23,885 nt of DNA from a virus (taxonomy: Duplodnaviria > Heunggongvirae > Uroviricota > Caudoviricetes), in the IMG/VR virus record IMGVR_UViG_3300010262_000019. One strand, written 5' to 3'. The notes beneath the pieces are model-generated. The model was not told the origin of the DNA. It made no database searches and saw nothing but the letters and a program-made list of their open reading frames with translations. The stretch's first letter is position 1, and the number at the start of each line of letters is the position of its first letter. Below are positions 1 to 4,794 of this stretch, piece after piece. The position numbers and the translations under genes are program-made.

Positions 1-7
1 GACTAAA

Positions 8-214
8 ATGCCAAACGGTGCTGTGGATGCGTTAAAGGAAGAATTAACTCGACGCATCAGTAAGCGTTATGACGATGTAGAGGTGATCGTAAAAGCCACC
101 AGCAACGATGGCCTTTCTGTTACACGCACCGCAGATAAGGATTCTGCAAAAACTTTTGTTCAGGAGACTCTGAAAGATACCTGGGAATCTGCTGACGAGT
201 GGTTTGTTCACTAA
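8..214 (+). CDS. DinI-family (DNA-damage-inducible protein I-like) protein; 5' end probably lies upstream of the window
   Basis: 68-aa ORF whose C-terminal part (...[17 protein letters not shown]) resembles the conserved DinI C-terminus as I recall it (...ETWESADDWF...). The frame stays open back to position 2, so the true start is probably outside the window. Confidence 0.7.
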
Positions 215-273
215 TTAACACGTAAAATCGGTAACGGCTGGAAATCATTCAATACTCGCACTATCGAAAGTTC

Positions 274-320
274 GCCAGCCAGCCGCAGCACGTTCTTGCA
301 TACGACGTGGCTGCGGCTTC
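274..320. terminator. GC-rich hairpin between the convergent DinI-like and invertase genes (candidate bidirectional terminator; no clear U-tract)
   Basis: Inverted repeat agccgcagcacg (281-292) / cgacgtggctgcggct (303-318) forming a stem of about 12 bp with one bulge, sitting between two convergent stop codons (214 and 358). Confidence 0.3.
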
Positions 321-357
321 CAACATTAGACAAATAACTCTTTAAATTGCTTTTAAA

Positions 358-921
358 TTATTTCGTTTGAATGCCAGTAACAGGAAATCGTTTATATAGG
401 GTTGATAGCCCAACGTTATAGATACGTGCAACATAACGCCGTGATTTCCCTGCCGCTATGAGCGCTCCCATCTGTTGCCACTGCTCGTCGCTAAACTTCG
501 GTCTACGCCCACCAATCCGGCCTTTGGATCTGGCAATAGCCAAACCAGCTAAAGTTCGCTCTCTATTCAAATCAGATTCATACTGCGCAGCAGAAAGAAT
601 ATTACGGAAATTATAGCGACCACTTGCTGTTTTCAGGTCTACACCATCTGTAATACTCCGAAAATTAACGCCTTTTTCGTGCAGATTTTGAAACATCAAT
701 AGCGCATGTAGCACATTTCTCCCTATCCGATCTAGCTTCCAGACAATCAACTCATCTCCACTTTTCATCACCGAAATTAATTCCTTTAACACAGGGCGAT
801 TAGCTGTTCTGCCACTGGCATATTCTTCATAAATTCGCTCACAGCCAGCTGACTCAAGTGCAAGACGTTGCAACTCTGTATCCTGATGATTTGTTGATAC
901 ACGAACATACCCGTAAATCAT
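358..921 (-). CDS. pin: Serine recombinase, site-specific DNA invertase of the Pin/Gin/Cin/Hin family
   Basis: 187-aa ORF with N-terminal MIYGYVRVSTNHQDTELQ (catalytic-serine resolvase/invertase motif) and a C-terminal helix-turn-helix region (GKSRRYVARIYNVGLSTLYKRF). It lies immediately beside a tail-fibre invertible segment, as gin does in Mu and pin in e14. Confidence 0.9.
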   Translation of the reverse strand: MIYGYVRVSTNHQDTELQRLALESAGCERIYEEYASGRTANRPVLKELISVMKSGDELIVWKLDRIGRNVLHALLMFQNLHEKGVNFRSITDGVDLKTASGRYNFRNILSAAQYESDLNRERTLAGLAIARSKGRIGGRRPKFSDEQWQQMGALIAAGKSRRYVARIYNVGLSTLYKRFPVTGIQTK

Positions 922-926
922 GAGTG

Positions 927-953
927 CTTCTCCTGTTGTAAAAACAGGAGAAG
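927..953 (-). promoter_or_regulatory. Perfect 11-bp inverted repeat overlapping the invertase Shine-Dalgarno sequence (candidate RBS-sequestering hairpin or operator)
   Basis: cttctcctgtt (927-937) and aacaggagaag (943-953) are exact reverse complements with a 5-nt spacer. On the minus-strand mRNA the GGAG of the invertase RBS lies inside one arm, a few nt upstream of the ATG at 921. Confidence 0.4.
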
Positions 954-980
954 AGGCGAAATATCACCTGATTCAGAAAA

Positions 981-1006
981 ATATTTGAAAGGTTGGTTTG
1001 GGAGAA
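981..1006. repeat. Left crossover site of the invertible segment (gix/hix-like 26-bp site)
   Basis: atatttgaaaggTTggtttgggagaa; positions 993-1007 are the exact reverse complement of 2854-2868 (15 bp). The site has the half-site/2-bp-core layout typical of Gin/Hin-family recombination sites. Confidence 0.6.
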
Positions 1007-1489
1007 GGCTCTGCATTACCGGTTGGGGTGCCTGTTCCGTGGCCTTCAGCCACTCCGCCAACAGGCTGGTTGAAATGCAATGGTGCGGCTTTTTCTGCTG
1101 AAGAATACCCGGAACTGGCAAAGGCTTACCCGACCAATAAATTGCCTGATTTACGTGGTGAGTTTATTCGTGGCTGGGATGATGGACGTGGAGTGGATAG
1201 TGGGCGAACGCTGCTTTCAGCGCAAGGAGATGCTATTCGAAACATTACTGGCGGTTTTGGTCAGTTGCGCGTAAACAGCGAAATTAATGCAATTGTCGAT
1301 GTTCAAGCTGTAAGTGGGGCTTTTTACGGAGGTACCTAAGTCCGGAATAACATCAATGTATCTATGACATACGCTAATGACCGAAAAATCCGACAAGATG
1401 TTCACTTCTCGGCGGCAAATGTTGTTCCAACAGCAAATGAAAATCGTCCACGTAACATCGCCTTTAATTATATTGTGAGGGCCGCATGA
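987..1489 (+). pseudogene. Promoterless alternative tail-fibre C-terminal cassette (silent orientation), interrupted by an in-frame TAA at 1337-1339
   Basis: The frame opens right after a stop at 986-988 with no ATG, and the crossover site lies at its 5' end, so it can only be expressed after inversion fuses it to the constant fibre N-terminus. It encodes ...PVGVPVPWPSATPPTGWLKCNGAAFSAEEYPELAKAYP..., a motif typical of fibre C-terminal domains. After the TAA the same frame stays open for 49 codons and ends ...RPRNIAFNYIVRAA, which resembles the C-terminus of the expressed fibre (...[12 protein letters not shown]). Confidence 0.5.
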
Positions 1490-2091
1490 TGAATAAAGCT
1501 GTATTAAATAGTGAACTCATTGCCATAAAAGCGGGAGACATTATCATTTATAATTATGATGGTGAAACGCGTGAATATATTTCTACATCAACTGAATATC
1601 TCGCTGTCGGCGTCGGTATCCCGGCATGTTCTTGTTTGGATGCACCAGGTACACATAAAGCTGGTTATGCAATCTGTCGCTCTGTAGATTTAAATTCATG
1701 GGAATATGTGCCAGATCATCGCGGTGAAATCGTCTATAGCACCGAAACAGGAGAATCGAAAGAAATCACAGCTCCGGGTGATTATCCTGAAAATACAACC
1801 ACTATCGCCCCGTTAACGTCATACGATGAATGGAATGGTGAGAAATGGGTGACAGATACCGAGGCACAGCACGGCGCAGCAGTAGATGCAGCAGAAGCAC
1901 AGCGCCAGTCACTGATTGATGCAGCAATGGCTTCCATTAGTCTGATTCAGCTGAAATTACAGGCCGGACGGAAGTTGACGCAGGCAGAAACAACCCGACT
2001 TAACGCCGTGCTGGATTACACTGACGCGGTGACGGCAACAGATACCAGCACCGCGCCGGATGTCATCTGGCCTGAACTGCCGGAGGCGTAG
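1486..2091 (+). CDS. Tail-fibre assembly protein (chaperone), alternative copy inside the invertible segment
   Basis: 201-aa ORF whose ATG overlaps the stop of the silent fibre cassette (ATGA). Its C-terminal ...TSTAPDVIWPELPEA matches the conserved C-terminus of tail-fibre assembly proteins; the N-terminal half is AT-rich. Confidence 0.75.
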   Translation: MMNKAVLNSELIAIKAGDIIIYNYDGETREYISTSTEYLAVGVGIPACSCLDAPGTHKAGYAICRSVDLNSWEYVPDHRGEIVYSTETGESKEITAPGDYPENTTTIAPLTSYDEWNGEKWVTDTEAQHGAAVDAAEAQRQSLIDAAMASISLIQLKLQAGRKLTQAETTRLNAVLDYTDAVTATDTSTAPDVIWPELPEA

Positions 2092-2506
2092 GCCATTCAA
2101 TATCTGGCGCACTGGAAGTATCGACCAGTTCCAGTGCGTCCAGATAATCCAGCCACAGATTATATTGCGCCAGTTCCTCGCCTTTCAGACGACCAATAGC
2201 GGCTTTACCGGGCCACTGCTTGTTATTCATGAATTCGTTTGCGGCATCAATACGGCGTTGTTTTTCTCGTTCAGCCTCAGCAATAATCTCTGCATGGGTT
2301 GGTGGTGGAATATCTCCCCACCTCGGCATCCCGTCACTCCCGGCAATACGAATTTTGCCATCAGGCGGATTCCCTATAAAAGTAACGGCCACATCAGCAT
2401 CAACCTCCCTGGCATCATCCGGGAATGTGCCAGCCTTTTTGTACTGTTCTTCCAGCACTGCGGGAAAAAACGCGTTTTCAGACGCACTGTAGTAATAATG
2501 AGTCAT
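2063..2506 (-). CDS. Tail-fibre assembly protein (chaperone) for the currently expressed fibre
   Basis: 147-aa ORF directly downstream of the fibre gene on the minus strand (4-nt gap). Its C-terminal ...TSSAPDIEWPTPPAVQAR is homologous to the other chaperone copy. Confidence 0.75.
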   Translation of the reverse strand: MTHYYYSASENAFFPAVLEEQYKKAGTFPDDAREVDADVAVTFIGNPPDGKIRIAGSDGMPRWGDIPPPTHAEIIAEAEREKQRRIDAANEFMNNKQWPGKAAIGRLKGEELAQYNLWLDYLDALELVDTSSAPDIEWPTPPAVQAR

Positions 2507-2509
2507 TAT

Positions 2510-3157
2510 TTATCTTCCGATCGCTAAATAGCCGAAAGCAGCTGTCGTTACTGGCGTTACGCCGCTAAAACCCAGCACTCGTGTCCCTGTTCTGGACCGA
2601 CGTAATGAGTCCTCCTGAACAGTGCCAATGAAAGCCGTTGATGCTGAACTACGTGGCATTGCTATAAAAATCATGCACTGTGATGGAAACGGTATGGGAA
2701 AGGTAATATCTGTGTTTGAAGCTCCAATCGCCCCCATCTGGATAATTGTCCCGTCTGGAAACCTGATCCAGATTGCATCCGTTGAGATTCCCTTTGTCCA
2801 CGAACTCATATCAGGGATCTGATTTGCACCTATGCCAACATCCCTTTTTGCCGCTTCTCCCAAACCAAGGTTTTCGAGAGCCGTTTTCACCGTGCCATCC
2901 GATTTGATATCACCAAACGGATTCTTGCGGCTTAACAGCAGCGCACGAAGCGCGGTAAGCAGCTGGTCGTGCCGCGCCTTCTCCAGACTGGCACCGGATG
3001 CCTCCACCACGCTGCAAAGCTCCTCCTGCAACATGTCAAAGTAGTCATCATCCAGATCGGTGGCAGGCGTGCCGGTCTGGGGGTTACCACGGGTAAAACC
3101 GTTCTTACCCGCGCCGAACTTATCCTTCTGCGCGGTTTTCGTGTCTATACGATGCAT
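2510..3157 (-). CDS. Short tail-fibre protein: constant N-terminal part (about 97 aa, outside the invertible segment) fused to a variable C-terminal part (inside it)
   Basis: 215-aa ORF with GGAG about 8 nt upstream of the ATG at 3157. The crossover site falls in the codons for ...ALENLGLGE..., and the C-terminal end ...[12 protein letters not shown] is fibre-like. Position matches the last structural gene of a Mu-like tail cluster. Confidence 0.7.
2855..2880. repeat. Right crossover site of the invertible segment, located inside the fibre gene
   Basis: ttctcccaaaccAAggttttcgagag: an imperfect palindrome (9 of 12 half-site positions) with a 2-bp core, whose left half is the inverted copy of 995-1006. 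Confidence 0.6.
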
Positions 3158-3160
3158 GAA

Positions 3161-3745
3161 TTACTCCGGATATTTAAAAATTACGTAGGTATGCGACGGG
3201 CAGAGTTTGTTAAGCACACACTCGACAACGGTGTCCCCCCAGATACGCAGTGCGGAATCACAGGGATCGCCACATGTCATCCAGGTGGTGTTGGTGGCGG
3301 CTGGCATGTTGACCTGCCAGTAATACCGCCATTCCGGCGCATTCACCGCGTCAGTACAGGCCGATGAGCAGGTGAACGTGCTTTTGTCGTATCGCGTGAT
3401 GGTGGCATCTGGTCTGCCCAGGGCAGCAAGCTGTGCAAGATAAAAATCCTCGTTGATGCCGCCCGCCAGGTTAACCTTCGCATCCAGCCGTTGCTGACGC
3501 TGGCGAAGGGTCTGTGTCCCTGCGGGAATACATTCATCCGGCAGACCGCACAGACGCTCCCAGCGGTTTATCAGTTCAGTGGTGGTGCGCGGATCCAGCT
3601 CCCGCATCAGGGCATCCGCACGCTGATGAACGCGGGTTAATGACGGTGCCGCACCGGCAATCGCCGGATCGCTGGCTGACCACGCCGGACCGGGGGGCAA
3701 CAGTGCCGACAACAGACGGATGTAATCATCGTTTGTCACGTCCAT
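3161..3745 (-). CDS. Mu gp48-like / YmfQ-like tail protein (DUF2313-type)
   Basis: 194-aa ORF just upstream of the fibre gene on the minus strand; length, position and sequence are consistent with the e14 YmfQ / Mu gp48 family. Confidence 0.6.
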
Positions 3746-4794
3746 GAAATCGTCCCCAGAACCGCCAGTTCATTTTTCGCAATGGAGATATTGTCTGCCG
3801 GTGCAAGCAACTGATGGCTATATTCCCCGTTCGCACCGGAAATCGCTTCACTGATACGCGATACCTTCAGTTCTCCCTGCGGATAACCATCACGCAGAAG
3901 AAACGAACGCAACTCCGCGGTGATGGCGGCTCGTATTTCTGGTGTGTCCGGCGTCACGCGGATATGAAAATCCACCGTATGTGCCACCGGCCTGAATACA
4001 TACAAATCAGAGCCTGCCACCGGGGCCAGTGGCACGATATGTTGTCTTGCTGCCGTTTCCGTTGATTCTTCCGGAATGGGATTAATCAGGTCACTGCTGG
4101 CAATCATCACACCGACAGTTCCCGTTCCCATCCAGTGACGGTATGTCCATGCGCGGGTAATGCCGGGCACTTCTTTAGCCCAGACGACATAGTCCCCGTC
4201 AGCCCCGCCCTGAGGCGTCCAGTAATACCGCTCAATGACGCGGGCGCGCCACGTTTCCAGCTCTTCAGTATCAAATCCGCCTGTAAGGGTGTCAGCCACA
4301 CCGGAAGACGGCAGACCATTCACCGGCGTGACCAGGATTAATGCCGTACCGTCGTCAGCGTTACCGACCGCACCTGCACTTGAGCAGGCGATCGGCACGC
4401 GCAGGACACCACCGGAGCTGGTTGCATCGGCAGTTGCCGTGTACTGAACCAGGTCATCGCGCTGAATAACACTCCCGGCGGTCACCTTCAGGCCATCGCT
4501 GACACCTTCCCAGCGCATATACCCGCTGGCAGCCGTGGCCCCCTTGCGCGGACACCGTTTCATCGCAGCATGTCGCGCCAGCCAGGACTCATCGCACAGG
4601 TCAGGCAGCATGTTCATTGCCAGATAATCGATGTAACCGTAAACCGTATGCAGCGCCGCCGCATACACCTTTGCCCGCACGTCTTCATCCATGCGCCGGA
4701 GCGTGTCGCTGACGTCCAGCCTGGCGAATAAATCGTTACGGAGCATACTGATATTTTCTGCCAGCGTCGGGCGCTGAAATTCACTGTCCGCCAT
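3736..4794 (-). CDS. Baseplate J-like protein (Mu gp47 family)
   Basis: 352-aa ORF in the baseplate cluster between the gp46-like and gp48-like genes; size and position typical of baseplate J/gp47 proteins. Confidence 0.7.

Follow-up and report, generated by a model that had tools for sequence, protein, structure and literature searches.

The 23,885-nt stretch of caudoviricete DNA analysed here (the window; IMG/VR record IMGVR_UViG_3300010262_000019) raises the question of whether a segment at the end of its tail-fibre gene is inverted by site-specific recombination and, if it is, between which states and by which enzyme. A preliminary description of the locus had proposed a Pin/Gin-type segment that switches the C-terminus of the fibre together with its chaperone. 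With a gene order matching that of the e14 P segment, a crossover site identical to pixL, an inverted copy in E. coli 4114, and the fusion expected for the flipped state in strain PV16-126, it is very probable that positions 993-2868 are a genuine site-specific invertible fibre segment. The constant part of the fibre (codons 1-97; 2867-3157) lies outside the segment, and the variable gp53-like part (2510-2866) inside it. Each alternative end has its own Caudo_TAP gene behind it, the collar-type end a 201-aa Tfa and the gp53-like end one of 147 aa; the two chaperone genes are convergent, and their 3' ends overlap by 29 bp. A serine invertase gene with Resolvase and HTH_7 domains is located directly outside, as had been described, starting 60 bp from the left site. 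Coordinates of all features are collected in Table 1.

The two ends of the segment share 15 bp of exact inverted identity (993-1007 vs. 2854-2868; sequence CTTCTCCCAAACCAA), re-read from the sequence at the coordinates first given for it. The repeat finder reports this match as pair I3, growing to 20 nt at 90%. Allowing up to two mismatches, exactly two copies of CTTCTCCCAAACCAA are present in the window, on opposite strands. This is far above chance: the expectation for the 15-mer from dinucleotide shuffles is 0.03, and two copies were found in 0 of 100 shuffles. Around the repeat are two 26-bp sites. The left, invertase-proximal one (981-1006) is ATATTTGAAAGGTTGGTTTGGGAGAA, with a core TT at 993-994; the right, distal one (2855-2880) is TTCTCCCAAACCAAGGTTTTCGAGAG, with a core AA at 2867-2868. 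The central dinucleotides are thus mutual reverse complements, as strand exchange demands.

The right site is located within the expressed fibre gene (2510-3157, minus strand), where the preliminary description had placed it, at the codons for NLGLGE. It translates as L-E-N-L-G-L-G-E, with the crossover within codon L97, and is identical at 26 of 26 positions to pixL of e14 (Table 3 of PMC3241671). Compared with a generic Din-site pattern it has one mismatch; chance matches numbered 0 in 100 shuffles. The same published table gives pixL as TTCTCCCAAACC AA GGTTTTCGAGAG and pixR as TTCTCCCAAACC AA CGTTTATGAAAA. Written in that direction, the left site is TTCTCCCAAACC AA CCTTTCAAATAT, that is, the inner half and core of pixR with another outer half. 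On the strand shown, its inner half is GGTTTGGGAGAA, the same as in pixR of e14, and its outer half, ATATTTGAAAGG, is lineage-specific. In a hand comparison with Table 3 of PMC3241671, three of the seven dix-consensus positions are mismatched in the left outer half. Functional hixR is more diverged, with five of seven (PMC3241671). Decay of the left site was considered and rejected, given the example of hixR and the pattern CCTTT..ATA, which accompanies the invertase lineage in four genera: E. coli has CCTTTCAAATAT as the proximal outer half, Serratia and Klebsiella share CCTTTTTTATAA, and Yokenella has CCTTTTATATAT, as against CGTTTATGAAAA in Pin-associated cassettes. Because it has been kept alongside the enzyme across these genera, the odd half-site is regarded as conserved. 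Further crossover sites, of the kind that would allow Min-like multiple inversions, were sought across the 23.9-kb window, and none were found beyond these two; in the window this is a simple two-state switch. Its two junction types are ATATTTGAAAGG-TT-GGTTTGGGAGAAGCGGC and GCAGAGCCTTCTCCCAAACC-AA-GGTTTTCG.

Natural genomes contain the segment in both orientations, with the exchange at the sites. The inverted form was constructed in silico, and its left junction (invertase 5' end, site, gp53-like end) was used to search complete E. coli genomes. It matches E. coli 4114 in one piece over 601 of 601 bases, at 99.2%. This strain has the same dusA-adjacent prophage and the same invertase, but with the gp53-like end silent and a collar-type end fused to the constant part. 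In a pairwise BLAST comparison the window runs parallel to strain 4114 over 1-1007, in the opposite direction over 1438-2868, and parallel once more from 2854 onwards; both switch points (1007/993 and 2854/2868) fall inside the 15-bp repeat. In the O103:H2 strain PV16-126, the flipped-state fusion is encoded exactly as predicted (MHRID...NLGLGEGSALPVGVPVPW...). Scanning viral contigs with a pattern of the invertase-proximal site added 22 loci, for 28 compared altogether. A gp53-like end fills the silent slot at 17 of them, a collar end at 10, and another type at one; nine of the collar ends were counted by script, and the tenth (L022) is a collar variant judged by eye. Phage SKA5 has the same module pair as contigs L031 and L025, in opposite orientations. 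Since prophages that are 97-99% identical occur in both orientations, flipping is evolutionarily recent. The window's own copy may still flip, presumably through the adjacent invertase.

The proposed mechanism is that of the known fibre switches. With the constant part of the fibre and the transcription and translation signals outside the segment, and two facing cassettes of end plus chaperone inside it, the adjacent invertase would bind both 26-bp sites and make staggered cuts at the central AA/TT. Rotation and religation would then connect one or the other end, together with the chaperone belonging to it, in frame at ...LENL|GLGE.... As the segment now lies, the gp53-like end is the expressed one and the collar-type end is stored, in broken form.

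The cassette is close kin to the P segment of e14 in E. coli K-12, and its mechanism is in that sense known. The gene order is the same (ymfQ, stfP, tfaP / tfaE, stfE, pinE), with identities of 98.5% for YmfQ, 90.5% for TfaE, 66% overall for StfP, 61% for StfE, 55.6% for PinE, and 50% for TfaP; the constant part of the fibre is ~98% identical to StfP residues 1-101. The distal site, AA core, and junction at NLGLGE are also shared. The e14 segment, 1,797 bp long compared with 1,876 bp here, has been shown experimentally to invert at TTGGTTTGGGAGAAGG / CCTTCTCCCAAACCAA (a 2025 study; PMC12529663), and 15 of the 16 bases of its repeat, TTGGTTTGGGAGAAG(G), are present at both segment ends here. 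The differences are in the outer half of the proximal site (CGTTTATGAAAA in e14, CCTTTCAAATAT here), the lineage of the invertase, the +30/+78 pair of Fis sites, which is absent here, and a leader hairpin sequestering the Shine-Dalgarno sequence, which is present here. In addition, e14 is a cryptic remnant, whereas the prophage here looks complete, and the silent allele here has a nonsense codon.

The likeness to the Mu G and P1 C segments that had been proposed together with that to e14 P also holds at the level of layout: a constant fibre N-terminus outside, two opposed ends with their chaperones inside, an invertase just outside reading away from the segment, and 26-bp sites of the same family. 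Beyond this, BLASTP gives no significant match of the fibre and chaperones to Mu S, U, U', or the variable part of S'; the gix core is GA rather than AA; Gin is 49-51% identical to the window enzyme; the Mu segment is 3 kb long; and the gin and cin genes have a pair of Fis sites in their 5' coding region that the window gene does not. Hin, from the flagellar phase-variation switch of Salmonella, is likewise a serine invertase; it shares the catalytic residues and recombines 26-bp hix sites with an AA core, and hixR resembles the left site here in having one strongly diverged half ending in GG beside the core, but Hin flips a promoter, has its gene inside the segment, and is 45% identical. In the Min multiple-inversion system of plasmid p15B, too, C-terminal ends of a fibre are rearranged through Din-type sites with an AA core; here there are just the two sites.

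Table 1. Features of the fibre-switch locus and its surroundings (window coordinates).
Feature	Positions	Strand	Basis or remark
DinI-like gene, window start	8-214		
Serine DNA invertase, 187 aa	358-921	minus	Pfam Resolvase 1.3e-36, HTH_7 7e-12; outside segment, transcribed away
Invertase leader stem-loop, 11-bp stem	927-953	minus	3' arm holds AGGAG, 8 nt before ATG
Second small leader hairpin	954-969	minus	
Proximal crossover site	981-1006	none	Repeat and pix-site comparison
Invertible segment, core to core, 1,876 bp	993-2868	none	Collinearity reversal vs. E. coli 4114
Silent fibre C-terminus, tail-collar type, StfE-like	995-1489	plus	Pfam Collar 5.7e-16
In-frame TAA nonsense codon	1337-1339	plus	C to A at 1338; last 50 residues lost
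Chaperone with collar end, TfaE-like, 201 aa	1486-2091	plus	Pfam Caudo_TAP 5.8e-32
Chaperone with expressed end, TfaP-like, 147 aa	2063-2506	minus	Pfam Caudo_TAP 1e-32
Expressed tail-fibre gene, 215 aa	2510-3157	minus	Pfam Gp53-like_C 7e-12
Distal crossover site, encodes LENLGLGE	2855-2880	none	pixL 26/26
YmfQ / Mu gp48-like baseplate gene	3161-3745	minus	Pfam Phage_Mu_Gp48 9e-27; 98.5% to e14 YmfQ
Baseplate J gene, late operon	3736-4794	minus	

One of the two states seems to be disabled in this copy. The left site does open an alternative fibre C-terminal frame, as first described: GLGEGSALPV... follows without an ATG, and the frame is closed upstream by a TGA (986-988), three codons before GLGE. 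This collar end is 61% identical to StfE of e14, and an intact homologue is found as a fibre fusion in PV16-126. What the preliminary description missed is the TAA at 1337-1339, where four of four relatives (KE58, ACN002, PV16-126, and EC2001; 98% identical over the stretch) have an equivalent TCA (Ser). It leaves 114 codons from GLGE, vs. 144-176 in other collar alleles, and a flipped fibre of 211 aa, vs. 261 aa for the uninterrupted PV16-126 fusion. The base at 1338 might have been called wrongly, but what distinguishes it is a substitution, not a miscounted homopolymer. A frameshift was considered and rejected, as ORFs 998-1339 and 1364-1489 are in the same frame with a single TAA between them. 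Neither the 38-mer containing the TAA nor the proximal site has a match in the species-representative genome collection. The C-terminal extreme of such fibres is the distal tip and requires the chaperone, and the truncated flipped fibre is probably non-functional. With the flipped fibre ~50 residues short, the switch would be between ON and defective rather than between two working host ranges, and the two host-range states that had been predicted are not borne out in this copy.

Silent-slot ends are truncated elsewhere as well, at codon 64 in L016, L017, L027, L035, and L037 and at codon 35 in L019. Given these other contigs, decay of the unexpressed allele seems to be common and not peculiar to the window. 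The start of the silent frame also varies. The TGA that closes it depends on a G at 987, where strain 4114 has a C; there the silent frame reaches an upstream start overlapping that of the invertase and is annotated as a gene (L009, 3721-4152). The invertase-side frame of L004 (2767-3300) is similarly open to an upstream start and annotated as a gene, and in Pin-type cassettes the silent copy starts with its own ATG (MPFARYF...). The same collar end (98% over 1190-1500) and the same crossover site are found in E. coli KE58 (L003, 1978-5435), in a P2-like prophage whose fibre is of the long gpH type and whose invertase is a canonical Pin-type one, so fibre-end cassettes move between unrelated tail types and between invertase lineages. 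IS3-family insertions have struck two relatives (L005, 4356-5569; L010, 958-2078): in PV16-126 the invertase and one fibre end are gone, leaving the flipped state frozen, and in EC2001 the prophage integrase is split by an IS3 element.

The invertase is where the locus departs most clearly from its e14 counterpart. Its best solved relative in the PDB is Gin (E=1e-56, residues 1-181), and its identities are 45% to Hin, 49-51% to Gin, 53% to Cin, and 54-56% to PinE. The ORF is full length, and the catalytic residues S9, R42, D63, R64, and R67 align with S10, R43, D65, R66, and R69 of Hin. Gin, Cin, and Pin are visibly much closer to one another than to the window enzyme and share the helix-E block MGRFFFHVMGALAEMERELI exactly, whereas Hin departs from it at one position, where S replaces the second G. 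Near PinE, and with an identical block, are the Pin genes of ACN002 and KE58. The canonical helix-E switch, MGRFFFHVMxALAEMEREL, keeps the dimer inactive until activation, and the window invertase lacks this conserved sequence. F105 and M109 are the residues that hold the Hin dimer inactive, and F105N alone gives Fis-independent inversion (PMC4513852).

The changes are those of a lineage. The best 120 cluster representatives of 1,814 relatives at E <= 1e-30 were compared, with positions in Hin numbering. Most are 76-99% identical to the window enzyme, and they come from E. coli, Salmonella, Citrobacter, Enterobacter, Klebsiella, Serratia, Kluyvera, Yokenella, and other hosts. The catalytic S10, R43, D65, R66, and R69 are conserved among the representatives, as are F88 and F106. 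Helix E reads SGRYNFRNILSAAQYESDL, with F104Y, F105N, H107R, M109I, L112A, and M115Y in 120 of 120. Lineage members adjoin fibre and chaperone cassettes in Serratia, Klebsiella, and Yokenella. Nearly all named members are annotated simply as "recombinase family protein". In NCBIfam the invertase matched nothing but unrelated serine recombinase families, far below cutoff, which leaves it with no specific name, and the open-access literature yielded nothing specific on this lineage or on natural Fis-independent enteric invertases. On this comparison the enzyme belongs to a divergent lineage and is no orthologue of Pin. The designation as a Pin/Gin-type system stands for the layout, the sites, and the presence of a serine recombinase; it does not extend to the resident enzyme, at 55.6% identity to PinE. 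The lineages are evidently not sealed off from each other, judging from mosaic sequences that point to recombination between canonical and divergent enzymes: P0017 and P0019 have a canonical-looking first 60 residues (KKLLR in helix B) with a lineage core, and P0102, P0110, and P0112 have a lineage core with a Pin-like DNA-binding domain (AQAGRLI...).

To our knowledge, the well-studied enteric DNA invertases all depend on Fis and an enhancer in their own gene. The rule for the enhancer is two Fis sites spaced 48 bp. A scan was made with the consensus KNNYRNNWNNYRNNM (seven positions), a motif reportedly due to Hübner and Arber; it is degenerate, and the scan is of sequence only. For calibration, pinE, gin, cin, and two further Pin-type genes were scanned, and all five have 7/7 matches at +30 and +78 from the start codon, 48 bp apart and ~105 bp from the proximal site. 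The published distance from enhancer to proximal site is ~100 bp (PMC3798978). Of 2,000 shuffles of pinE, 68 contained two perfect matches at a spacing of exactly 48 bp, wherever in the gene they fell. In the window invertase gene, +30 and +78 score 6/7 and 4/7, and nowhere along it are two sites spaced 47-49 bp. The Fis-binding enhancer that the preliminary description had suggested looking for in the 5' part of the gene is thus not there in its canonical form. The pair is likewise missing from five other lineage genes of four genera, making six of six with that of the window. The canonical enhancer signature is absent; Fis could bind elsewhere.

The protein departs from the canonical pattern as well. 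In Hin, K47, R/K48, and R/K51 together with Q151, R154, and L155 are uniquely conserved for activation by Fis and the enhancer, the last three as the Fis contact conserved among Fis-dependent invertases (PMC3798978). The corresponding residues in the window are K, E, S and Q, A, L, which is not the canonical set. Counting helix E as well, R48, K51, F105, H107, M109, M115, and R154 of Hin are E, S, N, R, I, Y, and A here. Among the lineage representatives, K is kept at position 47; position 48, E in the window, is mostly R/K in the others; position 51 is basic in only 9 of 120 and position 154 in 52 of 120. With the enhancer, the contact residues, and the helix-E block all departing from the canonical pattern, the enzyme is not a strict member of the Hin/Gin/Cin/Pin group, but it would work like that family. 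The lineage may not be activated through the canonical Fis/enhancer route, a view held with lower confidence.

Some other form of control could be located in the leader. The hairpin at 927-953 folds at -24.4 kcal/mol (z = -6.4), and 0 of 200 shuffles were as stable. It has been kept in the Serratia, Klebsiella, and Yokenella members, with one compensatory change of a C-G pair to U-A; the pinE and gin leaders have no comparable hairpin (z about 0). An Rfam search of positions 1-4000 matched only CssrB (E=0.16, 22 bits vs. a gathering score of 76), so this is not a described RNA family. As it covers the ribosome-binding site, the hairpin may act as a translational brake on invertase synthesis. 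A more general proposal would be that a large unstudied lineage (>120 clusters) has abandoned Fis/enhancer control, with its fixed helix E (F105N included) and the loss of helix-B and DBD contact residues and of the Fis-site pair, is limited by the leader hairpin, and acts on the same pix-type sites. This is tentative, plausible without being the favoured outcome; if true, fibre cassettes would be interchangeable and could be served by canonical and divergent invertases alike.

As a switch this is textbook biology, and what the analysis adds there is mainly confirmation and annotation: the SfV-like prophage family is marked as phase-variable in host range, with one state disabled in this copy. 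The invertase lineage is a concrete, testable lead on serine recombinase control. Mutations that free Hin or Gin from Fis control map to helix E, and here a widespread lineage carries such changes as its fixed wild-type state, without the enhancer signature. If truly Fis-free, it would offer a natural experiment in the restraint of serine invertases and a possible source of host-factor-independent invertases for genetic circuits.

Several points weigh against a working switch at this locus driven by its own enzyme. The evidence for inversion is comparison across genomes and not reads from the window's own lysogen. The outer half of the left site is a poor fit to the generic Din pattern (four mismatches, no match at <=3). 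The pair of Fis sites is missing and several of the Fis/enhancer residues of Hin are changed, so that low activity would be predicted if the enzyme needs Fis as Hin does. The nonsense codon in the silent allele is what would be expected without recent selection on the alternative state. Finally, other Pin-type invertases can flip e14-type sites in trans, and the adjacent enzyme is perhaps not the sole actor.

Most of these points could be accommodated if the segment were a frozen relic that no longer flips, a fixed fibre gene with dead spare parts, involving a poorly expressed or inactive invertase, a sub-optimal left site, and a decaying silent allele. The nonsense codon, the truncated silent copies in the related contigs listed above, the absent canonical enhancer, the ribosome-binding site buried in a stable hairpin, and the relatives in which IS elements have destroyed the system (L005, L010) all fit this picture. 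They have to be set against an invertase that is full length with all its catalytic residues, two intact sites with matching cores, and nearly identical prophages (97-99%) in opposite orientations; the proximal half-site and the leader hairpin, kept as they are across four genera, look like features of the lineage rather than decay. On balance a relic is unlikely.

The last of the points above would carry more weight if the segment were inverted mainly in trans, by canonical Pin-type invertases of other prophages, with the adjacent recombinase in some other or minor role. Inversion of the P segment of e14 is reported for each of PinE, PinQ, and PinR, with cross-complementation among Din invertases (PMC12529663). 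The distal site is pixL, the proximal one has the pixR inner half and core, and the same fibre modules are found beside canonical Pin in ACN002 and KE58. This is nonetheless quite improbable as the main route: the divergent invertase is located directly beside fibre and chaperone cassettes in E. coli, Serratia, Klebsiella, and Yokenella, and the half-site CCTTT..ATA co-occurs with it, unlike the Pin-associated CGTTTATGAAAA, which points to a cognate pair of enzyme and site.

A third possibility concerns what the segment is for. In e14, the inversion product StfE2 is reported to block adsorption of phage T2 (PMC12529663). If the silent copy here were expressed alone, as a short fibre-tip protein at the host surface, the switch would be a matter of lysogen defence or exclusion. 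The role reported for the e14 inversion products (PMC12529663) and the invertase-side frames open and annotated in L004 and L009 would fit; in the window, however, the frame is closed by its TGA without an ATG and interrupted by the in-frame TAA, and a promoter and terminator scan of positions 1-3800 gave counts at chance level, with no promoter-like site above chance. For this copy the idea is very improbable.

That the inverted repeat is a chance match or a RecA substrate, with no site-specific role, is hardly conceivable: the inverted pairs I1 and I2, longer (25 nt) but only 72-76% complementary, do illustrate that weak repeats arise by chance, but they have no counterpart in known sites and are treated as noise, while the pair at the segment ends is well beyond the shuffle expectation, has the sequence of published pix sites, and is exactly where natural inversions break, and 15 bp is far too short for efficient RecA recombination. 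A site-specific fibre switch thus remains the preferred reading of the segment.

The surroundings suggest that the host element is a complete-looking myovirus prophage of the SfV/SKA5 type, with the segment closing the late operon. The rest of the window shares 97.9% identity with Shigella phage SfV across 80% of its length; for Escherichia phage SKA5 the figures are 99.4% and 72%. The cassette is tied into the late operon by the YmfQ-like gene, which directly precedes the fibre gene. On the other side, an imperfect GC-rich inverted repeat (277-320; AGCCGCAGCACGT ... ACGTGGCTGCGGCT) is located between the converging 3' ends of the DinI-like and invertase genes. It may be a bidirectional terminator, although no T-run follows; the CssrB match, below threshold (E=0.16), lies across it and probably means nothing. 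In E. coli relatives (L001, L009, L011; 1500-3000), the order is dusA, tyrosine integrase, DinI-like gene, and invertase, which places the fibre switch at the very edge of the prophage, beside the attachment site.

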